From a plasmid, in assembly GCF_056746865.1 (NCBI RefSeq), contig NZ_JBWKMP010000006.1: DNA of 63,119 nucleotides, one strand, 5' to 3'. Below the pieces are notes generated by a model, which saw nothing but the letters and a program-made list of their open reading frames with translations, had not been told where the DNA came from and made no database searches. The position numbers and the translations under genes are program-made. Numbering within the stretch: the stretch's first letter is position 1; each line of letters starts with the position of its first letter. Positions 1 through 45,621 of this stretch are shown one piece after another.

Positions 1-2
1 CC

Positions 3-170
3 GGACTGTCCGGTGCCGCACGGGACGCAGAGAAGATGAAGAAAGGCGATGCGGCTGAACATGCAGAGTTCCATATGAAAGACAACCGCTGGGTGCCTGG
101 CTGGATGTGTGCACCACGTCCACAGACGGATGCCACTGAACGCACCGATAACCTGGCTGATGCCGCCTGA
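3..170 (+). CDS. 3-prime end of an upstream leading-region gene, truncated by the window edge; product unknown
   Basis: Open frame from the window edge to TGA at 168-170, immediately upstream of psiB; no motif recognised. Confidence 0.3.
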
Positions 171-222
171 TGAACAACCACACCGCCCCGCCGGAGACGG
201 GGCGGCAGAGGGAGATACCGTG

Positions 223-657
223 ATGAAAACTGAACTGACACTGAATGCCCTGCAGTCCATGAACGCACAGGAATATGAAGATATCCGTGCTGCGGGAAGC
301 GATATGCGCCGTAATCTCACTCACGAGGTGATGCGTGAAGTGGACGCACCGGCTAACTGGATGATGAACGGAGAGTATGGCAGTGAGTTCGGGGGCTTTT
401 TCCCCGTCCAGGTTCGTTTCACGCCAGCCCACGAACGTTTCCACCTGGCATTATGTTCGCCGGGAGACGTCTCTCAGCTCTGGATGCTGGTTCTGGTGAA
501 TGGTGGTGGACAGCCTTTCGCCGTCGTTCAGGTGCAACATATCTTCACGCCTGTCGCGATCAGTCACACGCTGGCGCTTGCCGCGACACTGGATGCGCAG
601 GGATACAGTGTTAACGACATCATCCATATCCTGATGGCAGAAGGAGGTCAGGCATGA
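223..657 (+). CDS. psiB: PsiB, plasmid SOS-inhibition protein B
   Basis: 144-aa product [25 protein letters not shown]... matches PsiB as recalled; GAGGGA Shine-Dalgarno upstream of ATG 223; the ORF-track start at 109 is an upstream extension. Confidence 0.9.
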
Positions 658-1373
658 GCGCACGTTCACGGGCACTGATCCCCCTCAGCGCAGAACAACA
701 GGCCGCCATGCAGGCGGTGGCTGTCACAGAACAACGTCGTCGTCAGGGACGCACACTTTCAGCATGGCCTTATGCCACCGCTTTCTTTCGCTGCCTGAAT
801 GGCAGTCGCCGGATTTCGCTGACCGATCTCCGCTTTTTTGCCCCTGCGCTGACGAAGGAGGAATTTCATGGCAACCGTCTCCTGTGGCTGGCTGCCGTGG
901 ATAAACTGATTGAAAGTTTTGGGGAAGTCTGTGTTCTTCCCCTGCCATCCGATGCGGGGCACCGTCTGTTCCCGTCCGTGCCTTTTCGTGAAGGTGAGCG
1001 TCGTCGTCAGAAAACCACGCTGACAGAGCAGAAATACAGCCGCCAGCGGGAACGTGAGGCAGAACGACGGGAACTGGAATACCAGACATGTTTTGCTCAG
1101 GCGCAGATTGACCTTGCGTTTCATACTCCCGCCACGGTCGGAAGCTGGTTGTCCCGCTGGTCTGGTGTTGTTGAGGAGCATGATCTGGAAACGATTTTCT
1201 GGGGGTGGTGCGGGCGTTTTCCATCACTGTCATCATTTGACCGGTTTTTCTGGCAGGAGGAACCACTCTGGCGGCTGATTTTTGAAGCCGGTGAGGCCGG
1301 TCGTGGTGCACCGGTACAGGTACGTGCACTTGAGCAGTGGATGATCCCGAACAAGCTGGAGAACGTAATATGA
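654..1373 (+). CDS. psiA: PsiA, plasmid SOS-inhibition protein A
   Basis: 239-aa ORF overlapping the psiB stop (ATGA); psiB-psiA pairing typical of F/IncI leading regions. Confidence 0.85.
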
Positions 1374-1966
1374 TGAAATCAGACGAAAAATACCAGGTTC
1401 CCGCGTGGATGCGACCTCTGTTGCCGTTGCTCTGCAACACCGGGGGGAACGATCCGGAAGAACTGCTGAATGATACAGAAACCACTGCCAGTGCGAATGT
1501 TGTCCGTTATGTACTGATAGTTGCTGTGCGGTCGCAGGTTGATCTGCTGCAGCTTCTGTACAGGAAAGGGCTGTTGCGCACAGAGATACCAGGTGGCTTT
1601 TCACCGGAAGAAGCGCAGGCACTCCTGGATAATCTGGTGCGCAGCCATATCAGCAAGGCGCTGTCGGGCGAGCGAATGGCAGCCCGTGACAGAAATGCCG
1701 ATCTGGCCTGGATTGGACAGCAACTGGTCGATGCCGCCTGGTTTGTCCGTGCCACACTGGAAGCGCATGGGATGAGCGTCGGAAATGAGAGTCCCCCTGC
1801 TCCGCCGGAGACAATGCCGGACATACAGACACGGGAACTGGTGATGTTGATCAAGCGACTGGCATCATCGCTGAAAGCGGTGAAACCGGACAGTTGTGTG
1901 GTGCGTGAAGCGCAGGACTGGCTGCGCGACAGAAAACTTGTGGATATCACAGATATTCTCCGGTGA
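1370..1966 (+). CDS. hypothetical leading-region protein downstream of psiA
   Basis: 198-aa ORF from ATG 1370 overlapping the psiA stop; same strand as the other leading-region genes; no motif recognised. Confidence 0.55.
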   Translation: MMKSDEKYQVPAWMRPLLPLLCNTGGNDPEELLNDTETTASANVVRYVLIVAVRSQVDLLQLLYRKGLLRTEIPGGFSPEEAQALLDNLVRSHISKALSGERMAARDRNADLAWIGQQLVDAAWFVRATLEAHGMSVGNESPPAPPETMPDIQTRELVMLIKRLASSLKAVKPDSCVVREAQDWLRDRKLVDITDILR

Positions 1967-1989
1967 ACCAGGCATGTATATTTTACGCA

Positions 1990-2420
1990 GGGACACGCCG
2001 ATCATGATCGTTTCATATCAGGGGTGGTCTGGAGGTCATGCGGCGTGTCCTCTGCACTCGCCGGAATAAGGAAGTCGCCGGCGGCTCCGCTTTTACCCGG
2101 CCATGCGGGGCATGGCCTTGTGGGTTTTCAGCTCTGTGGCCTCAGCGTCGTGTGCGGGCTGTGCCGTGCCTCCATCTTAGCCGGGCTGGCAGGGATGCAA
2201 GGGTACGCTTCGCCGCTGCGGTCACCCGGTCCCTCCTTCCCGTCTGCCGTGATTTTCCGGTCGTTCACCCGCTCAGATTTCGCGGTCTCACCCTCCAACT
2301 CCCGCCAGCCGTGTGCGTCAGGCTGCGGCTTCCCTTGCGCCCCTGCATCCCCGCCTTATCGCCCGGCTTTTATGGAGGCACGGCACCGCCCGGTGTCGCA
2401 GAACATGTGACTATGGAGGA
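1990..2420 (+). promoter_or_regulatory. GC-rich structured intergenic region upstream of ardA; possible single-strand promoter
   Basis: ~430 bp with no convincing ORF, high GC and many short inverted repeats, directly 5-prime of ardA; its sequence differs from the two Frpo-like copies. Confidence 0.25.
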
Positions 2421-2427
2421 TTCGGGA

Positions 2428-2928
2428 ATGTCTGTTGTTGCACCTGCTGTATACGTTGGAACCTGGCACAAATACAACTGTGGAAGCATCGCCGGACGCT
2501 GGTTTGACCTGACCACGTTTGATGATGAGCGCGACTTTTTCGCCGCCTGCCGTGCTCTTCACCAGGATGAAGCCGATCCTGAACTGATGTTTCAGGATTA
2601 TGAGGGATTCCCGGGGAATATGGCCTCTGAATGCCATATCAACTGGGCCTGGGTTGAAGGCTTCCGCCAGGCACGGGATGAAGGCTGCGAAGAGGCTTAT
2701 CGTCTCTGGGTGGATGATACCGGTGAGACGGATTTTGACACCTTCCGCGATGCCTGGTGGGGCGAGGCTGACAGTGAGGAGGCTTTTGCGGTTGAGTTCG
2801 TCAGTGATACCGGCCTGCTGGCTGACGTGCCGGAGACGGTGGCGCTCTATTTTGACTATGAGGCGTATGCGCGGGATTTATTCCTGGACTCCTTCACCTT
2901 TATTGACGGTCATGTGTTCCGTCGGTGA
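2428..2928 (+). CDS. ardA: ArdA antirestriction protein (anti type I restriction-modification)
   Basis: 166-aa acidic product [62 protein letters not shown]... matches ArdA as recalled; GGAGGA Shine-Dalgarno before ATG 2428. Confidence 0.92.
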
Positions 2929-3294
2929 TTTACTCCCCCGCTCCGGCGGGGGTATGGCCTGCCAGGCCGCCGGAAAACCCTGGCAGGCTTACGCCTGCCT
3001 GAAATGCAGGAGGGCCGCGCCTGCGGCGCTGCCCTTCCTGCCCGTCATGGTGTGAGGCATTTTTCTGTTATGTCGTTTCTGTTGTTCTGATTTCCGGAGG
3101 CGGGGACACCTTCGGCTCCCGGCTGCCTGGCGGCATCCGGTCGTCAGGCCCGACTCCGACAGGCAGCTGCTGGCGCACCCGCCAGTCTCCGCCGAACCCG
3201 CTGGCGCGGTTTCGGGCTGCCGCTACGGTCCGATGTCTGAAAAACCAGGCTTGCAGCGACCGTTCCGGTCGCGCCGCCCCTGTCGCGCCGGAAA

Positions 3295-3640
3295 CGGCGC
3301 TCCCTGCACACCTGACGGTGTGTAAGGCCACTGCGCCTGATGGCGCAGTCAACCCTTCCGCCGCCACCCCTGCGGCCTGTTTCCCGCTGTGGACTTTCCG
3401 GGGGCTGGAGTAACCACATCCCGTTTCAGCAGTCCAGGGGAAGATATACCGTCCACAAAATTTTTAGCCATAAACCCGGCAAAAAATTTTGCGTCCGCCC
3501 CGGACAGCTGCCCCGTGACGTGGTGACGGACGCCCCATCGGAAAGGTCCACTGCGGGGAGAAACCCCGAAGAAGTGGACGGCAGAAGGGGCTTTCGCCCC
3601 TCCGGGGAGCAACCGGTCGGCCCGGCGACCTGATTCAGCA
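3295..3640 (+). repeat. Frpo/ssi-like element, copy 1 (candidate single-stranded-DNA promoter)
   Basis: ~345-bp GC-rich non-coding block, about 80 percent identical over its length to 6172-6520 and beginning with the shared core CGGCGCTCCCTGCACACCT...GTGTAAGGCCACTGCGCCTGATGGCGCAG; ends just before ORF 3656. Confidence 0.5.
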
Positions 3641-3655
3641 GAAGGAGACGTTTTC

Positions 3656-4090
3656 ATGACAGTCAGCAGCACGATTTCCGTTTTTTGCCGCGACGGGGTG
3701 TTCCGTACCGTTTACTGCCACCTGCACGGTGAGCCGACCTGGAACGGTCGCATCCTGCATACCCACTATGCCACCGGTCAGCAGGCCGAAGCCCTGGTTG
3801 AACACGGTGATATCCGTTGCCTCGGTCCCCGTTGCGACAAACCCGCCGGGCATACGCTTCAGAACCCGGTGGACGGTGTGACGGCTTATTACGGACGTGA
3901 CAGTGGTTTCCGGATGGACAGTGAGGCGCGTGAGTACCGTTCTTTCAGGGAGGCTATTGCCACTGAAAGCACTGAAGAGGTGCGCTTCCATTATGTGTTC
4001 ATCGACGGCTACTGGAAGGTGATGTACCGCACGCCGGAAGGCTGGAAGATGAAAGCGCTCGCGCTGGCACTGCGTCGCTGTCCGGAATGA
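3656..4090 (+). CDS. hypothetical Cys/His-containing leading-region protein
   Basis: 144-aa ORF with AGGAGA Shine-Dalgarno, immediately downstream of Frpo-like copy 1; terminator follows. Confidence 0.7.
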   Translation: MTVSSTISVFCRDGVFRTVYCHLHGEPTWNGRILHTHYATGQQAEALVEHGDIRCLGPRCDKPAGHTLQNPVDGVTAYYGRDSGFRMDSEAREYRSFREAIATESTEEVRFHYVFIDGYWKVMYRTPEGWKMKALALALRRCPE

Positions 4091-4120
4091 AAAAAAGCAG
4101 GGCGATAAACCCTGCCTTTC
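4091..4120 (+). terminator. rho-independent terminator
   Basis: Stem GCAGGG / CCCTGC (4097-4115) followed by CTTTC. Confidence 0.5.
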
Positions 4121-4182
4121 TCCGCTGGCGCTTCCCCGTACGGAAGTCCGGCATCTCATTCACTAACTATGGAGATTATGCC

Positions 4183-4449
4183 ATGAGACCATCAATTATC
4201 TTCGCAACCGCCGAGTATGTAAAGCGTCTGCGTGAAGAGTGCCTGCGGGAGAATAAACCCCTGCACCGCCATACCCGCTTCAGACGTCAGGAGCTGGCAC
4301 AGGATGAGATTAACCCGGACGTCCTGGCGATGAGCGGCCATATCGCCAGACGCTGCAGTGAGCAGAAGCGGGTGCGTATCCCCGCCATGAAAGTCAGCGA
4401 ATGGGGCCACCTGCTCCGCGCGCTTGAAATTGAGCGGGTCTGCCACTGA
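4183..4449 (+). CDS. hypothetical small leading-region protein
   Basis: 88-aa ORF from ATG 4183 with GGAG 8 nt upstream; the ORF-track start at 4087 is an upstream extension. Confidence 0.55.
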   Translation: MRPSIIFATAEYVKRLREECLRENKPLHRHTRFRRQELAQDEINPDVLAMSGHIARRCSEQKRVRIPAMKVSEWGHLLRALEIERVCH

Positions 4450-4513
4450 TTAACCCTTGCCGTCTGCCTGTGCAGGCGGCAGGATACGTTCAGACATCTC
4501 ACCAGGAGGAACC

Positions 4514-5428
4514 GTGAGTAAGAAGAAAAACACCACAACGCCCACGCCGCATGATGCCGCGTTCCGGTCGTTCCTGGCGAATCCCGACGTCGCCAGAGAT
4601 TTTCTGGAACTGCATCTTCCGGCGGAGTACCGGCAGTTGTGCGACCTGTCCACGCTGAAGCTGGAACCCGCCACCTTTGTTGAGCCGGACCTGCATCAGT
4701 ACGCCAGCGATATCCTCTGGAGCGTGAAAACCACCGGGGGTGAAGATGGCTATGTTTATACGCTCATCGAGCACCAGAGCACCGAAAATCTGTACATGCC
4801 TTTCCGCATGTTACGTTACAGTGTGGCGGCGATGCAGAGACATCTGGAGCAGCACAAAACGTTGCCACTGGTGATTCCTGTACTGTTCTATCATGGTGAG
4901 CGCAGCCCGTACCCGTACAGCATGAACTGGCTGGACTGTTTTGAGAATCCGGCACTTGCGGCTAAAATATACACAAAGCCGTTTCCGCTGGTTGATATCA
5001 CTGTCGTTGATGACAATGAAATCATGAACCATCGCCGGATGGCCGCACTGACGCTGCTGATGAAGCATATCCGCCATCGTGACATGATGGAGCTGCTGGA
5101 CAAACTCCCGCAGGTCATGGTGGAAATTTCAGACGAGCAGGTGCGTGTTCTGATTCATTACATCGTTAACGCAGGGGACTCTGTATCACCGGAATTTATG
5201 CGGGCGCTGGCTGAGCGTCTGCCGCAGCATGAGGATAAACTGATGACTATCGCAGAACGTCTTGAGCAAAAAGGTCGCCAGGAAGGCAGGATGGAAGGAC
5301 GCATGGAAGGAGCGCTTGAAAAAGCCCTGGCTATTGCGTGCCAGCTTCAGAAAATGGGGATGACGCCGGAGCAGATTAAGCAGGCTACCGGACTTTCCGA
5401 TGACGAACTGAAGAAAATCACTCACTGA
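4514..5428 (+). CDS. Rpn family recombination-promoting nuclease (YhgA-like, PD-(D/E)XK)
   Basis: Product ...PTPHDAAFRSFLANPDVARDFLELHLP...YTLIEHQSTENLYMPFRMLRY...PLVIPVLFYHGERSPYP... closely resembles E. coli YhgA/Rpn proteins as recalled; AGGAGGA Shine-Dalgarno before GTG 4514. Confidence 0.85.
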   Translation: MSKKKNTTTPTPHDAAFRSFLANPDVARDFLELHLPAEYRQLCDLSTLKLEPATFVEPDLHQYASDILWSVKTTGGEDGYVYTLIEHQSTENLYMPFRMLRYSVAAMQRHLEQHKTLPLVIPVLFYHGERSPYPYSMNWLDCFENPALAAKIYTKPFPLVDITVVDDNEIMNHRRMAALTLLMKHIRHRDMMELLDKLPQVMVEISDEQVRVLIHYIVNAGDSVSPEFMRALAERLPQHEDKLMTIAERLEQKGRQEGRMEGRMEGALEKALAIACQLQKMGMTPEQIKQATGLSDDELKKITH

Positions 5429-5440
5429 TGAGAACCACAA

Positions 5441-5467
5441 AGCCCGGCAAAATGCCGGGCTTTTTTG
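5441..5467 (+). terminator. rho-independent terminator after rpn
   Basis: AGCCCGGCA-AAAT-GCCGGGCT stem-loop followed by TTTTTT. Confidence 0.6.
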
Positions 5468-5490
5468 TCAGCAGGAGCAGAGCAAACAGC

Positions 5491-5673
5491 ATGACGATTG
5501 CAGAACGTCTTATACAGAAAGGTTTCGACGAGGGTTTTAAACAAGGGGCTCTTGAAGTGGCGCGGGAAATAGCCTGCCGGCTTCGGGATATAGGCTGGCC
5601 GCCGGAACGGATTCAGGAGGTCACGGGACTTTCCGGTGAAGAACTGAAAAAGCTGTTTCCTGATGAGCAGTAG
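5491..5673 (+). CDS. small stand-alone paralogue of the Rpn C-terminal domain (RpnS-like)
   Basis: 60-aa ORF MTIAERLIQKGFDEGFKQGALEVAREIACRLRDIGWPPERIQEVTGLSGEELKK... with AGGAGCAG Shine-Dalgarno; aligns with the last ~60 aa of the upstream Rpn (MTIAERLEQKG...TGLSDDELKK). Confidence 0.6.
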   Translation: MTIAERLIQKGFDEGFKQGALEVAREIACRLRDIGWPPERIQEVTGLSGEELKKLFPDEQ

Positions 5674-5703
5674 CCTGGCATTCAGCCAGGCTGTGAATCA
5701 CGC

Positions 5704-5955
5704 TCACACATCCTCTGCCGTTTCCCCCAGTTCATTTTCCAGTCGCCTGATGATATCTGCCTTACGCATCCCCTGCATGTGAGGCAGCAGGTCACGGACT
5801 GAAAGTGCCTGGGTGGTCCTCCAGACGGTGACGTCCACCTGTTCCGCATTTTCCCAGGCGTGCCATGTTCTCTGCGTCACGCCAAATTCTCTGGCCGCTT
5901 TTTCGCGTGACCAGAGCATGCTTTTTCGCCAGATTCGCAGTTCCCAGCCGGTCAT
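5704..5955 (-). CDS. small helix-turn-helix DNA-binding regulator (XRE/Cro-like)
   Basis: 83-aa ORF with an HTH-like segment SREKAAREFGVTQRTWHAWE; AAGGTG Shine-Dalgarno; divergent from Frpo-like copy 2. Confidence 0.6.
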   Translation of the reverse strand: MTGWELRIWRKSMLWSREKAAREFGVTQRTWHAWENAEQVDVTVWRTTQALSVRDLLPHMQGMRKADIIRRLENELGETAEDV

Positions 5956-5966
5956 AAAACACCTTT

Positions 5967-6060
5967 GAAAAAGTGAAAAAACTTCACTTTATTTTATCAT
6001 CACAATTGCCAAATCAGCGCGATAAATAAGTGTAAAAAAGTGAAGAAATTTCACTTTTTT
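5967..6060. promoter_or_regulatory. two AGTGAA-N-TTCACT palindromes (candidate operators) in the promoter region of the HTH gene
   Basis: AAAGTGAAAAAACTTCACTTT (5969-5990) and AAAAAGTGAAGAAATTTCACTTTTT (6035-6060), AT-rich, directly upstream of the - strand HTH gene. Confidence 0.4.
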
Positions 6061-6171
6061 TGCTTGTAAATGTCGTGCGGTTTTCTCTGTTTTCACCTGT
6101 GCGGGAGTGGTGTGCCAGTGACCACCACATGCCATTGTTGTGCCGTCGTTTTTCTTCAGTCGCGCCGTATG

Positions 6172-6520
6172 CGGCGCTCCCTGCACACCTTACGGTGTGT
6201 AAGGCCACTGCGCCTGATGGCGCAGCTGTCTCTGCCTGTCTGCCGCCGCACTGCGGCCTGTTCTCCGCAGACGGACTTTCCGGGGGTACATACATGACCA
6301 CATCCCGTTTCAGTCGTCCAGGGGGGAGATGTACCAGCCACAAAACTTTTTGCCGCAGGCGTCAAAAACTTTTGCGTCTGCCCCCGGACAACTGCCCCGT
6401 GACGTGGTGAGCGTCCCCCGTCGGAAAGGTCCACTGCGGGGAAATCCCCGAAGACCCGGACGGCAGAAGGAGCTTCGCTCCTCCGGGAAATGACCTGGCT
6501 GTCCCGGCAGTCGTGACGAT
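6172..6520 (+). repeat. Frpo/ssi-like element, copy 2 (candidate single-stranded-DNA promoter)
   Basis: Homologous to 3295-3640 (same 5-prime core and shared downstream blocks such as CTGCCCCGTGACGTGGTGA and GGAAAGGTCCACTGCGGGGA); ends at the Shine-Dalgarno of ORF 6535. Confidence 0.5.
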
Positions 6521-6534
6521 GAGGAGACAATGTG

Positions 6535-7383
6535 ATGAATCAGACTTTACCCACTGCTGACCTGAATACTGCCGGCACGACAGATGTTATTCCGTCTGTG
6601 GCTATCGACCGCATCATCGCGCAGCGTAACGAAGGTATTGCACTGTTCATGCAGGCGATGGAATGCCTGGCGACAGCGCGCAAGATTCTGCTCGATGCGT
6701 CAGGTGATATTTTTCTTTACGGGTTTGAAGACTGCGTGACTGATTCCGTTCGTCGCATAGATAAACCGGAAGAAGCGAAAAGGAATATCACCCGTCTTGC
6801 CGACCGGAAAATCTGGGACCGCCTGATGACAGATACGGGCATGTACACCTTCATGAGTTCATGCCAGCGTGATGAGTGGAACAGCCAGCTGATGAGCGAC
6901 ACCTGTCCTGAAATCACCCTGGACAATGTACTGGCAACATTCCGCCATCTGAATGCCTGCAAGATGCAGACATTTGAACAGGGACTGATTGATGTCTACC
7001 GGAAATTGTCATGGGATTACAGAACCAATAATCCCTGCCGTCTGGGTAAGAAAATCATTATTGAAAACCTGCTGTACCGCTGGAGTAACGGGCGTGTGAC
7101 GCTGGACTGCAGCGGACGGGAGGCACTGGATGACCTGGTACGTCCGTTTTATCTGCTGGAGGGGCGCAACGTTCCTGACTTCAGGAACAGTATCGGGGCG
7201 CAGTATGGTGAATTTCTCGGGAACGGCGACAATGTCGGTAAGCTGTTAGAAGGGGAATATTTTACGGTGCGTGGCTACCAGAAAGGGACCGTACACATTG
7301 TCTTTAAGCGTTCTGACCTTGTTGAAAAACTGAATGATATTATTGCACGGCATTATCCAGGTGCATTGCCGCCACGAGTCTGA
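6535..7383 (+). CDS. hypothetical leading-region protein (family guess: DUF4942-like)
   Basis: ~282-aa ORF with GAGGAGA Shine-Dalgarno, directly downstream of Frpo-like copy 2; the family assignment is from memory only. Confidence 0.7.
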   Translation: MNQTLPTADLNTAGTTDVIPSVAIDRIIAQRNEGIALFMQAMECLATARKILLDASGDIFLYGFEDCVTDSVRRIDKPEEAKRNITRLADRKIWDRLMTDTGMYTFMSSCQRDEWNSQLMSDTCPEITLDNVLATFRHLNACKMQTFEQGLIDVYRKLSWDYRTNNPCRLGKKIIIENLLYRWSNGRVTLDCSGREALDDLVRPFYLLEGRNVPDFRNSIGAQYGEFLGNGDNVGKLLEGEYFTVRGYQKGTVHIVFKRSDLVEKLNDIIARHYPGALPPRV

Positions 7384-7394
7384 TTAAACAGAAA

Positions 7395-7427
7395 AGCCCT
7401 GGTATTTATGCCGGGGCTTTTTTTTCT
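7395..7427. terminator. bidirectional rho-independent terminator
   Basis: AGCCCTGG...CCGGGGCT hairpin preceded by an A-run and followed by T8; sits between convergent ORFs. Confidence 0.5.
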
Positions 7428-7468
7428 GTAATCATCATAATCTCAGAACACAATGTGACATTGTCACA

Positions 7469-7804
7469 TCAATTGTTGTTCATATCGATGCCATCTTTCC
7501 TGCCTGAATCTGTCTTTTTAGGTGCTGTTTTAGAGGAAGAACGGCGGGATGGTTTTTTCGATTCTGCTTCCCGAATAATGTCACGAAGTGCCTTCTCTCC
7601 TACTTCATACCCTGCATTTTTGAGCGTGTCACGAACATCTGCCAGTGTATAACCCTTTGTCCTTACCAGGACAATAATGTCATCACGAATGGCATCAAGA
7701 AAATCACGCAATGTTTTCCGTTGAGCGGTGAGATCTGGCAATTCCGATAAAGCAGCTTTTGCCAGCTGGATGTCATCATCTGAGTAAAATTTTTTAGAAG
7801 CCAT
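7469..7804 (-). CDS. hypothetical protein with a basic Ser/Lys-rich C-terminal tail
   Basis: 111-aa ORF from ATG (7804) with GGAGA upstream; lies between the leading region and oriT. Confidence 0.5.
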   Translation of the reverse strand: MASKKFYSDDDIQLAKAALSELPDLTAQRKTLRDFLDAIRDDIIVLVRTKGYTLADVRDTLKNAGYEVGEKALRDIIREAESKKPSRRSSSKTAPKKTDSGRKDGIDMNNN

Positions 7805-7859
7805 TGGCACTTTCTCTCCGTTTCATGTTGAAGCCTGATTTTATCATCAAAAACTGACT

Positions 7860-8030
7860 CCTGGCAGGGCTGCGCCCTGCCTCTGCCGTCTGCATAAGAC
7901 TATGATGCACAAAAATAACAGGCTATAATGGCCAAAATCGGGGCAGGATGTGGGAATGTCGGACCGCGCACGCTCGCTCAGACATTCCCCACCTGGTCAG
8001 GGCTGCGCCCCGACACCCCGTAAGGAGCTG
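7860..8030. other. oriT: oriT region (origin of transfer), candidate nic site
   Basis: Directly upstream of nikA; inverted repeat GGCAGGGCTGCGCCCTGCC (7863-7881); 9-bp inverted repeat GGGAATGTC...GACATTCCC (7952-7989); IncP-like ATCCTG motif on the - strand at 7944-7949; second GGTCAGGGCTGCGCCCCGAC copy at 7995-8014. Confidence 0.55.
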
Positions 8031-8032
8031 AA

Positions 8033-8366
8033 GTGAGTGATAGTGCGGAAAAGAAAGAAAAGTGAGGTACGGCAAAAGACAGTTGTCAGGACACTCAGAT
8101 TCTCGGAGGATGAGGATGAAATCATAAGGAAAAAAGCTGAAGATTCCGGACTTACTGTATCTGCTTACATCCGAAATGCAGCACTGAATAAGCGAATTAA
8201 CTCCCGTACAGATGATGCTTTTCTGAAGGAGTTAATGAGACTGGGAAGGATGCAGAAGCATCTGTTTGTTCAGGGAAAAAGAACCGGTGACAAGGAATAC
8301 GCAGAAGTGCTTGTTGCCATAACCGAACTTACAAATACATTGCGTAAACAGTTAATGGAAGGTTGA
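8033..8366 (+). CDS. nikA: NikA relaxosome accessory protein (ribbon-helix-helix); start ambiguous
   Basis: Product ...KKSEVRQKTVVRTLRFSEDEDEIIRKKAEDSGLTVSAYIRNAALNKR... matches NikA as recalled; best Shine-Dalgarno (AAGGAG) serves GTG 8033, but that frame stops after 10 codons and the long frame starts at GTG 8037, implying a 1-nt indel in the GAAAAGAAAGAAAAG run. Confidence 0.8.
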
Positions 8367-8376
8367 GGATTCTCCT

Positions 8377-11078
8377 GTGAATGCAGTCATTCCGAAAAAG
8401 AGAAGGGACGGCAAGTCTTCGTTCGAAGACCTGGTATCCTACGTCTCTGTCCGGGATGACATGACCGATGAGGAACTGAATTTATCTTCTTCTTCGCAGG
8501 CTGAACAACCGCACCGAAGCCGTTTCAGTCGCCTTGTTGATTATGCGACACGCCTTCGAAATGAGTCATTCGTGGCGCTGGTTGATGTCATGAAGGACGG
8601 CTGCGAATGGGTCAACTTTTATGGTGTCACCTGTTTTCATAACTGTACTTCTCTTGAAACTGCTGCTGCAGATATGGAGTACATTGCGGACGGCAGGCAC
8701 ACTATGCAAAAGATGATACTGACCCTGTTTTTCACTACATTCTTTCCTGGCAGTCACATGAAAGCCCGCGTCCGGAACAGATTTATGACAGTGTACGTCA
8801 TACGCTGAAATCACTCGGCCTTGCCGACCATCAGTATGTCTCTGCCGTGCATACTGATACAGATAATCTGCACGTCCATGTGGCTGTTAACCGGGTACAC
8901 CCTGAAACGGGTTATCTGAACCGGTTATCATGGAGTCAGGAAAAACTCAGTCGTGCCTGCCGTGAGCTTGAACTGAAGCATGGTTTTGCTCCGGATAACG
9001 GTTGCTGGGTCCATGCGCCGGGAAATCGTATCGTTCGCAAAACTGCCGTTGAACGTGATCGCCAGAACGCTTGGACACGCGGAAAAAAACAAACTTTTCG
9101 CGAGTATGTTGCGCAGACAGCGGTCGCTGGTTTACGCAGTGAACCTGTACATGACTGGTTATCCCTGCATCGTCGTCTTGCGGAAGATGGTCTGTACCTG
9201 TCTCAGATGGACGGAAAATTTCTGGTGATGGATGGCTGGGATCGCAACAGGGAAGGTGTACAGCTTGACTCGTTTGGTCCCTCCTGGTGTGCAGAAAAAC
9301 TCATGAAAAAAATGGGTGACTACACGCCAGTGCCAAAAGACATTTTCAGCCAGGTGGAAGCACCAGGACGCTATAATCCGGACTTCATTGCAGCTGATGT
9401 TCGCCCGGAAAAAATCGCTGAAACAGAAAGTCTGCAGCAGTATGCCTGTCGTCATCTTGGAGAACGTCTGCCGGAAATGGCACGGGAAGGACGGCTGGAA
9501 AACTGCCAGGCTATTCACCGCACACTGGCTGAAGCGGGATTATGGATGCGTGTTCAGCATGGTCACCTGGTTATCTGTGACGGTTATGATCATAACCAGA
9601 CTCCCGTTCGTGCTGACAGCGTATGGTCACTGCTGACGCTCGACAATGTGAATCAACTCGATGGTGGCTGGCAGCCTGTACCAACAGATATTTTCCGCCA
9701 GGTTACGCCAACAGAACGCTTCCGTGGTCGTCGTATGGAGAGCTGTCCTGCGACCGATAAAGAATGGCACCGTATGCGTACAGGTACGGGGCCGCAGGGG
9801 GCTATCAAACGCGAACTGTTTTCTGACAAAGAAAGTCTGTGGGGATACAGCATCAGCCATTGTAGCCCTCAGATTGAAGAAATGATCACACAGGGTGAGT
9901 TTACCTGGCAGCGTTGTCATGAGTTGTTTGCACAACAGGGACTGATGCTACAGAAACAACATCACGGGCTTGTTGTCGTTGATGCCTTTAATCATGAGCA
10001 AACGCCGGTGAAGGCCAGCAGCATTCATCCTGATCTGACACTGGGGCGTGCGGAGCCACAGGCCGGACCTTTTGTGAGTGCTCCAGCAGATTTGTTTGAC
10101 AGGGTGCAACCTGAAAATCGCTATAACCCGGAGCTGGCTGTCAGTGACAGGTACGGGGTCAGCAGTAAACGTGACCCAATGCTGCGCCGGCAGCGACGTG
10201 AAGCCAGGGCTGAGGCCCGTGCTGACCTGCGTGCCCGCTATCTGGCATGGCGTGAACAATGGCGTAAACCGGATCTGCGTTATGGGGAACGTTGTCGGGA
10301 AATTCATCAGGCATGCCGTCTGCGGAAGTCACACATTCGTGCGCAGTACGATGATCCGGCATTACGTAAGCTGCATTATCACATTGCAGAAGTTCAGCGA
10401 ATGCAGGCATTGATCAGGCTGAAAGAAGACATCAGGGATGAGCGACAGAAACTTATTGCTGACGGGAAGTGGTATCCACCCTCTTACCGTCAGTGGGTCG
10501 AAATTCAGGCTGCTCAGGGAGACAGGGCTGCTGTATCGCAGTTGAGAGGCTGGGATTATCGCGATCGCCGTAAAGACAAGTCACGCACAACGACGACAGA
10601 CCGCTGTGTCGTGCTTTGTGAACCGGGCGGAACGCCGGTATACGGTAATACCGGTGATCTCGAGGCCCGTCTGCAGAAGAACGGGAGTGTTCGTTTCCGT
10701 GACCGTCGGACGGGAGAGTTTGTCTGTACGGATTATGGTGACAGGGTTGTTTTCCGTAATCACCATGACCGCAATGCGCTGGCAGATAAACTGGATTTGA
10801 TTGCACCGGTATTATTCGGGCGTGATCCACGCATGGGGTTTGAACCAGAAGGAAACGACAAACAATTTAACCAGGTCTTTGCTGAAATGGTTGCCTGGCA
10901 TAATGTGACAGGCCGTACCGGTCACGAAGACTACAGGATTACGCGACCGGACGTGGATCATCACCGTGAAGGAAGTGAACGCTACTACCGCGATTATATC
11001 GCGGCGAACAGCAACGATGACGCATCACTGCCTCCGCCGGAGCAGGATAAACGCTGGGAACCGCCTTCTCCAGGTTAA
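8377..11078 (+). pseudogene. nikB: NikB relaxase (MOBP), frameshifted in this sequence around 8698-8708
   Basis: N-terminal 143-aa ORF (8377-8808) and 743-aa ORF (8847-11078) join if one nucleotide is restored; the second frame upstream reads ...DPVFHYILSWQSHESPRPEQIYDSVRHTLKSLGLADHQYVSAVHTDTDNLHVHVAVNRVHPETGY (His-rich relaxase motif); combined ~900 aa. Confidence 0.85.
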
Positions 11079-45166: not shown

Positions 45167-45621
45167 TACGTGGGGGACAAGACTTGGCAAGCCGTTACTC
45201 ACAGTATTCGTCCTACTTTCTGACAGATTACTTGCTTGAAATAGCTTATTGCCAGAATGGTTCACATAGAGGATGCATTCACTACTGCCGGTAGTTGAGA
45301 GCCCAGCAGGGGGCAGTACATTGTTTATTTATGCATCTGGTAAGGTCAATTAAGGATCTGCCGGAGGTGCAAATACCGCCGCCAATACATCCCGTTTTGC
45401 AGTTGGATATGTTGCTCCAGGAAAGCGCCAAGTAGCCTGCAATGTACAGCAAAGCTGATAAAGGCTGTTTTTCCTGCATATGGAAAAACAGCCTTTATCA
45501 GCTTTCCACCACTGTACCTGGGGCAGGTACTTCCTATCAGATGGGCAAACATCCTATCCAACAGAAAATACATCATGTGGTGCCGGGGTTGTTTGCGTCG
45601 TATTTGGATATCAAATTAAGT

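Follow-up and report, generated by a model that had tools for sequence, protein, structure and literature searches.

We found that the spacer upstream of the anti-restriction gene ardA very probably contains a member of the class 2 family of single-stranded DNA (ssDNA) promoters, also known as ssp2 or Frpo3. We would put the probability of this reading at about 0.9; it builds on comparative analysis, and promoter activity is assigned to the block by homology. The family was described between late 2025 and early 2026, and the element is already known; reading the sequence alone had recovered an element class that was published in December 2025. Our own additions to the published work are the covariation of the hairpin stem, the conservation of the promoter hexamers on only one of its arms and the reading of the same sequence as a duplex.

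Genomic context of the block

The window, that is, the whole 63,119-nt stretch of plasmid DNA analysed here, begins within the leading region of a plasmid of IncI type, and its best match is pCMY42 (IncI-gamma/K1; 99.7% identity). The + strand carries, in this order, psiB, psiA, an ORF of 198 codons, a 461-bp gap, ardA, a 727-bp gap, further small ORFs, oriT and nikA/nikB. The gap before ardA extends from the stop codon of the upstream ORF to ATG 2428 (1967-2427). Its GC content is 0.64-0.71 over 2050-2400, as compared to 0.50-0.59 in the flanks.

The 5' part of the spacer (1967-2067) is confined to ardA-linked copies (pESBL, R64). It forms a separate hairpin just past the stop codon of the upstream ORF, without a T-run, and a promoter/terminator scan found no terminator within the block. 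At the place occupied by this part in the ardA-linked copies, the klcA-linked and F copies have a canonical terminator hairpin. The coordinates of all features are given in Table 1.

Table 1. Features of the block upstream of ardA and of its surroundings (positions in the window).
Feature	Position	Strand	Basis or remark
Upstream ORF (198 aa)	1370-1966	+	Stop at 1966 bounds the gap; IncI leading-region ORF
ardA-copy-specific 5' part of the spacer	1967-2067		Separate hairpin at ~1988-2057
Conserved class 2 flank, two small hairpins (MFE fold)	2068-2154	−	3' of the main hairpin on the transferred strand
Main imperfect hairpin, 238 nt	2155-2392	− (transferred strand)	Inverted repeat, DNA fold, covariation
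Putative −10 hexamer TAAGAT	2174-2179	−	Non-template arm; TAnnnT, invariant A2 and T6 in 10/10 relatives
Putative −35 hexamer TTGCAT	2195-2200	−	Non-template arm; TTGCA[T/A/G] in 10/10 diverged relatives
Hairpin apical domain	2204-2331	−	Hardly varies between IncI and IncF copies; transferred strand G-rich
Template-arm side of the promoter stem	2343-2373	+	Duplex reading CTGCAT-19 nt-TTTTAT
Predicted transcription start A2380	2380	+	Inferred, 7 nt past the −10; 48-nt leader
ardA Shine-Dalgarno GGAGGA	2415-2420	+	Sequence reading; 7 nt 5' of ATG 2428
ardA anti-restriction gene	2428-2928	+	Pfam PF07275, E = 7.8e-30; homologous plasmids carry the annotation ArdA
Two Frpo/ssi-like (class 1) copies	3282-3606 and 6159-6487		81% identical to each other

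Homology with class 2 ssDNA promoters

Wen et al. (NAR 2025, PMC12672017) showed that six leading-region operons of the IncI1 plasmid pESBL are induced within 15 min of mating, the top-induced genes up to about 500-fold, and that a large transferred-strand hairpin lies in front of each of these operons. Three of the hairpins are of the ssi1-3/Frpo type and were named class 1, whereas those 5' of ardA and klcA, which are alike and lack homology to class 1, were named class 2 ssDNA promoters; the hairpin before M.EcoGIX constitutes class 3 (PMC12672017). The start sites of all six operons were mapped by 5'RACE in transconjugants. Induction was transient, and it was prolonged in a uvrD mutant, in which the conversion from single-stranded to double-stranded DNA is slowed (PMC12672017). 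Frpo3 has been equated with class 2 (bioRxiv 10.1101/2025.04.03.647016), and the element of the F plasmid was named ssp2 by Fraikin, Yamaichi and Lesterlin (bioRxiv 10.64898/2026.01.09.698686).

The block (1967-2427) is 98.0% identical to the ardA-upstream region of pESBL-EA11 over all 461 nt, and 99.4% identical to that of R64. Moreover, the part from 2068 to 2420 matches the klcA-upstream paralogues of pESBL, R64 and pCMY42 at 94-96% (94.4% over ~354 nt for pESBL PklcA), as well as the F plasmid between yffB and yfgB (94.4% over 355 nt). Homology to the class is therefore found with pESBL PardA, pESBL PklcA and F ssp2. The location agrees with class 2 too, since ardA starts 36 nt past the base of the hairpin and the transferred strand is its template. 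Finally, −35/−10-like hexamers are present in the stem, conserved in 10/10 relatives, with a weak match to the consensus (7/12). The klcA-linked paralogue lies outside the window.

Transferred strand and proposed mechanism

The motif ATCCTG|C, which we take to be the IncP-like nick motif of the MOBP literature, is found on the − strand as the complement of ~7940-7946, with oriT at ~7.94 kb. Since the − strand carries this motif and also templates ardA, we conclude that it is the transferred strand.

This strand enters the recipient from oriT with its 5' end leading, and it has advanced by ~5.5 kb when the block arrives and the complement of 2392-2155 can snap back into the 238-nt hairpin. In the model that we propose, the lower stem of this hairpin may mimic duplex promoter DNA. 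Its 3' arm (complement of 2203-2155) would serve as the non-template strand, presenting the −35 TTGCAT, 15 nt and the −10 TAAGAT, the latter partly pre-melted in a 3x3 internal loop, and its 5' arm (complement of 2392-2332), with a 4-nt bulge, would serve as the template. Host RNA polymerase is predicted to start near A2380 and to leave the hairpin through its base toward ardA, and ArdA would accordingly be produced while the complementary strand is still missing. Conversion to double-stranded DNA would abolish the hairpin and leave the duplex CTGCAT-19 nt-TTTTAT; as this would be a poor promoter, expression would switch itself off. ArdA has to be in place ahead of the attack of host restriction enzymes on the incoming plasmid, and a promoter active only as ssDNA would explain both the timing and the self-limiting nature of its expression. 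By homology with F ssp2, the hairpin probably also halts complementary-strand synthesis near 2150-2155 as it arrives from psiB, the halt lasting until the hairpin is unwound by UvrD; ardA and the two class 1 promoters downstream would then remain single-stranded for a longer time.

This last step may also be turned around: a roadblock, or a priming signal, for complementary-strand synthesis could be the primary role of the structure and the promoter a secondary one. We consider this possible though on balance unlikely, and compatible with the assignment to class 2. In its favor, the 94%-identical ssp2 of F, which is linked to klcA/ardB, stalls complementary-strand synthesis at the end of the stem, the stall being resolved by UvrD, and the resulting delay extends the activity of single-strand promoters further downstream and helps the plasmid to establish itself in the face of type I restriction (10.64898/2026.01.09.698686). 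In addition, conservation of the apical domain and of the 3' flank goes beyond the needs of a mere promoter. On the other hand, a 5'RACE start and strong induction were reported precisely for the ardA-linked copy of pESBL (PMC12672017), and the roadblock evidence comes from the klcA-linked copy of F rather than from an ardA-linked one. Furthermore, placing ssp3 in the position of ssp2 in F rescues part of the phenotype (10.64898/2026.01.09.698686), which indicates that promoter function matters. A roadblock role of the block would be compatible with its role as a promoter and probably additional to it.

Putative promoter boxes and their conservation on one arm of the stem

The non-template arm (− strand) reads ...CCC-TTGCAT-CCCTGCCAGCCCGGC-TAAGAT-GGAGGCA..., with a spacer of 15 nt between the hexamers. 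The match to the consensus is 3/6 for the −35 and 4/6 for the −10, and with this spacer the pair falls below the threshold of the promoter scan used; what lends credibility to such weak hexamers is their conservation across relatives. The assignment of TTGCAT and TAAGAT comes from our own analysis, and the published boxes may differ. Within the −10, A(−11), A(−10) and G(−9) lie in the 3x3 internal loop, facing AAA. For the 98%-identical copy of pESBL, a start site has been determined by 5'RACE (PMC12672017).

The conservation was assessed on a diverse set of ten relatives (mean column identity 61%), obtained by motif search and alignment and analysed with RNAalifold. The stem was recovered with 47 pairs, 94.7% of the cells being paired and 14/47 pairs showing changes on both sides. 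None of 500 shuffles reached the observed percentage of paired cells, the number of both-side changes or the covariation score, and registers slid out of place scored at most 0.069, as compared to 0.261 for the true one. On the − strand, the wobble cells comprise 12 G·T versus 9 A·C, and stem covariation alone thus does not identify the strand (DNA − versus + or RNA). Since the wobble counts are not decisive, our strand call rests on the asymmetry in folding energy (23/23 copies) and on the asymmetry of the hexamers.

The latter is evident in all ten relatives, where the non-template arm carries TTGCA[T/A/G], a spacer of 14-20 nt (15 nt in 8/10) and TAnnnT, followed by an (R)RAGGCACGGC-like stretch in which AGGCAC is near-invariant to invariant. 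The spacer between the hexamers varies in sequence, the changes being compensated. At the place of the −10, the + strand reads TGTCGT, TTTCGT or TTTTAT in 9/10 relatives, and the −11 A is absent. The promoter signature is carried asymmetrically by one arm, as a single-strand promoter predicts and unlike what is expected of a duplex promoter or of an RNA structure.

Two types of stem circulate among IncI and IncF plasmids. In type A, found in this window, R64, pESBL and F, the 4-nt bulge is on the template arm and the non-template spacer measures 15 nt. In type B, found in pRHB16, pKMi006 and pSCU123, the non-template arm reads TTGCAA-20 nt-TACGAT, the extra bases being on this arm and the template side measuring 15 nt. 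Between the two types both arms have been replaced and complementarity has been kept.

These data bear directly on the alternative in which ardA is transcribed from a conventional double-strand σ70 promoter in the spacer, with no part played by the hairpin. The duplex does retain CTGCAT-19-TTTTAT on the + strand, and TTGCAA-15-AAAGAT in the pRHB16 type, and a low basal activity is possible. However, a scan of the + strand from 1800 to 3700 for consensus σ70 promoters found none, and A2 and T6 of the −10 are kept only on the non-template arm, being lost on the + strand in 9/10 relatives. Moreover, the stem has been maintained through compensatory change, and the published induction is transient, with a longer course when uvrD is mutated (PMC12672017). 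We therefore regard a conventional promoter as very unlikely. The template arm counts 19 nt between the corresponding points, the 4-nt bulge included, and the duplex + strand reads as a poor promoter, with a long spacer and no −11 A; these two properties would offer a simple explanation of silence after conversion. As the + strand of the pRHB16-type allele keeps the −11 A, silence of the double-stranded form appears less obvious for this allele.

Relationship with the Frpo-like copies

The preliminary description of this DNA had set the block apart from the two Frpo-like copies located downstream of ardA, had suggested that it might represent a different class of single-strand promoter acting in early ardA expression, and had proposed a comparison with published ssi elements. 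The distinction is confirmed and the suggestion supported. Neither blastn with a word size of 7, nor a self-comparison of the window by BLAST, nor an nhmmer profile built from 13 homologues of the block, with E values up to 10, detected similarity between the block and either copy. Both Frpo-like copies match ssi1-3 of pESBL and R64, and the block matches what has since been published as class 2.

It may still be asked whether the block is a highly diverged class 1 copy. The two kinds of element share architecture, genomic role and orientation, and the spans of their hairpins are comparable (238 nt in the block, 237 nt at 3353-3589). Nevertheless, the similarity searches detected no relationship, Wen et al. 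also report no homology between the classes (PMC12672017), and identities between class 1 copies amount to 80-87%. A member diverged beyond recognition seems highly improbable. By its hairpin-promoter architecture the block appears to work like Frpo; judged by sequence homology, it is not a class 1 member.

Hairpin fold on the transferred strand

The block had also been described as GC-rich and structured, and single-strand folding fully agrees with the latter. The arms of the inverted repeat lie at 2155-2203 and 2332-2392. Folded as ssDNA, the core (2150-2397) reached −74.5 kcal/mol on the − strand (z = −7.3) and −62.7 kcal/mol on the + strand (z = −5.9), and in both cases none of 200 shuffles was as stable. 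The − strand of the whole block folded at −113.6 kcal/mol (z = −5.4; 0/100 shuffles equally stable). We then repeated the mining procedure of Wen et al., which uses 300-nt windows, DNA parameters and a cut-off below −75 kcal/mol (PMC12672017). With −80.5 kcal/mol on the − strand, the segment 2101-2400 qualifies as a large stem-loop under this procedure, and in the first 8.4 kb the − strand passes the cut-off at only three places, namely the block and the regions of both Frpo-like copies. The − strand is more stable than the + strand in 13/13 close copies and in 10/10 diverse ones.

The conserved flank (2068-2154) is 88-96% identical to that of the klcA-linked copies in R64, pESBL, pCMY42, pRHB16 and F; it is the side on which complementary-strand synthesis arrives. 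The apical domain has a GC skew of −0.28 on the + strand and one covarying pair, A:T to G:C, across a bulge (alignment columns 144 and 163). We considered a G-quadruplex in this domain and dropped it, as no canonical four-tract motif occurs on the G-rich − strand, where no more than three GGG tracts lie close together (GGGAAGGAGGGACCGGG).

A further alternative is that the structure acts as RNA, as a leader, an attenuator or a terminator for read-through from the psiB-psiA operon. A + strand transcript would also fold (−104 kcal/mol, z = −3.8), and covariation does not discriminate between the strands. Against this, an Rfam scan of 1-8500 at E values up to 1 gave no match within 1967-2427, and in 23/23 copies the better fold is that of the − strand, the antisense of the mRNA. 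If transcription starts near 2380, the hairpin would be absent from the ardA mRNA, and the conservation of the hexamers on one arm has no RNA explanation. An RNA function is thus, in our opinion, hardly tenable.

Lastly, we practically discard a coding role, be it for a 128-aa ORF (2024-2410) or for an N-terminal extension of ArdA from 2038 (in-frame ORF 2038-2928): both frames are open and a few public records list a hypothetical protein here (most annotate nothing), but neither ORF matches a Pfam family, 1-nt and 4-nt indels break both frames between copies that are 88-99% identical, the same sequence also stands before klcA, an unrelated gene whose frame differs, chance alone is expected to leave frames open at 65-70% GC, and ATG 2428 has its own Shine-Dalgarno sequence. 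The region before ardA had been described as non-coding, and this holds for the whole gap of 461 bp.

Distribution and implications

In every relative examined, a gene for ArdA or KlcA/ArdB lies directly 3' of the element. The class 2 family is present in at least 5000 plasmid records; among complete E. coli genomes we counted 5255 records in 3737/5426 genomes, with 8728 places on plasmids. Plasmids with "4 places" in the similarity searches have two copies, each also matched through its own inverted arms, and no extra copies. With a 71%-identical relative as query, a further 4239 plasmid records were found, mostly from Klebsiella, the other hosts being Enterobacter, Citrobacter, Yersinia, Serratia and Pantoea. 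Being so common, the element is relevant to how antibiotic-resistance plasmids spread. In other plasmids it can be annotated by its signature, a hairpin located immediately before ardA or klcA and bearing TTGCAN-~15 nt-TAnnnT on one of its arms.

Several further readings may be proposed, all of them unpublished. IncI-type plasmids may possess a second UvrD-dependent roadblock in their ardA-linked copy, F having a single copy of the element; if this is true, just the oriT-proximal 5.5 kb, with ardA and the two class 1 operons, would be kept single-stranded. The stem alleles A and B may tune the strength of the promoter or of the roadblock, and the near-invariant apical domain, together with the conserved 3' flank, may serve polymerase stalling or the binding of SSB or a helicase. 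Judging from the sequence matches, the family would reach thousands of plasmids of Klebsiella, Enterobacter, Citrobacter and Yersinia at 60-80% identity with a fixed TTGCAN-15-TAnnnT. Taken jointly, we hold these four proposals tentatively, at somewhat less than even odds.

Comparison with known systems

Single-strand initiation signals of the ssi type, where a primosome assembles, were reportedly described by Nomura et al. in 1991. Like the block, they are structured plasmid ssDNA that acts before duplex formation. They are defined, however, by the priming of DNA synthesis, and the effect reported for ssp2 is the opposite one, a stall.

Frpo of F, reportedly described by Masai and Arai in 1997, is a class 1 ssDNA promoter. 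Class 1 elements (Frpo, and ssi1-3 of ColIb-P9/pESBL) resemble the block in forming a hairpin of ~240 nt on the transferred strand that rebuilds a −35 and a −10. The principle is the same, with activity only as ssDNA and transcription of leading-region genes toward oriT. Transcripts from class 1 elements prime complementary-strand synthesis, whereas roadblock activity has been reported for ssp2 and not for class 1 (10.64898/2026.01.09.698686).

The class 3 promoter (ssp3, of the M.EcoGIX methylase operon) is, like class 2, a hairpin promoter of the leading region acting as ssDNA, with similar strength. It differs from class 2 in its unrelated sequence (PMC12672017) and in having no roadblock activity in F (10.64898/2026.01.09.698686). 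The class 3 promoter lies outside the window.

The closest agreement is with pESBL PardA and PklcA and with F ssp2, which share with the block their sequence, position, strand, hairpin and stem-borne hexamers. As compared to pESBL there are point differences only, for example CCCTGCC in the spacer of the block and CAACGCC in that of pESBL. The block is linked to ardA and has a private 5' extension of 100 nt, whereas the copy with roadblock activity in F is linked to klcA/ardB.

The class 2 promoter: stem alleles and apical domain

The class 2 promoter, the 238-nt hairpin that precedes ardA and is formed by the transferred strand, occurs with two stem alleles, as seen when loci L006, L007 and L008 are compared with the window (stem arms 2155-2203 and 2332-2392). 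The alleles differ in which arm holds a surplus of 4-5 nt in the putative −35/−10 spacer: the template arm in one (15/19 nt), the non-template arm in the other (20/15 nt). We found that the ardA- and klcA-linked copies of a given plasmid carry an identical stem allele and also have small variants in common (GTT in pESBL, an additional nucleotide in R64). Because same-plasmid copies match at both levels, their sequences suggest gene conversion between the two paralogues.

The apical domain (2204-2331) is conserved beyond the needs of a loop, being nearly invariant in 13 IncI/IncF copies and across both stem alleles too. Its transferred strand is rich in G, the + strand having a GC skew of −0.28, and one of its pairs covaries from A:T to G:C across a bulge.

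Diverged relatives on other plasmids

Using as query a relative from E. coli M9, itself ~71% identical to the window, we matched at least 4239 plasmid records. Loci L010 and L012-L017, which show 60-80% identity to this query, are diverged class 2 relatives that lie on plasmids, 5' of ardA or klcA/ardB. Their hosts are Klebsiella, Enterobacter, Citrobacter, Yersinia ruckeri and Phytobacter, one of the Enterobacter hosts having been isolated from a moth, Plutella xylostella.

Surroundings of the promoters and the oriT region

Judged by identity to other plasmids, the class 1 (Frpo/ssi-like) repeat unit 3' of ardA extends beyond its 325-nt core. Positions 3110-3281 are 96-97% identical to the segment immediately preceding the ssb-linked ssi of pESBL and R64, and 2957-3033 are ~85% identical to a second segment near it. 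The additional sequence outside the core amounts to 350 nt. Folding of the whole spacer between ardA and the next ORF (2929-3655) gives −217 kcal/mol for the transferred strand vs −199 kcal/mol for the + strand.

Further features of the window
Feature	Position	Location or content
Separate hairpin	1988-2057	3' of the stop codon of ORF 1370-1966; only in ardA-linked copies
Terminator-like hairpin with T-run, AAAAGCCCTGG...CCGGGGCTTTTTTTT	7396-7432	3' of DUF4942 gene
oriT region	7860-8010	contains inverted repeats
IncP-like nick motif, ATCCTG|C	complement of ~7940-7946	− strand

The DUF4942 gene is the final leading-region gene ahead of oriT. ATCCTG|C is known as a nick motif from the MOBP literature, and its position on the − strand marks that strand as the transferred one. 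Elsewhere, close to the pil/shufflon part, a self-blast of the window returned a 58-nt self-complementary match of 90% identity (45451-45505).

The separate hairpin that follows ORF 1370-1966 has no T-run and is therefore not a canonical terminator. In the klcA-linked and F copies, by contrast, its position is taken by a textbook terminator hairpin, GGCGGGG..CCCCGCC-TTTTT.
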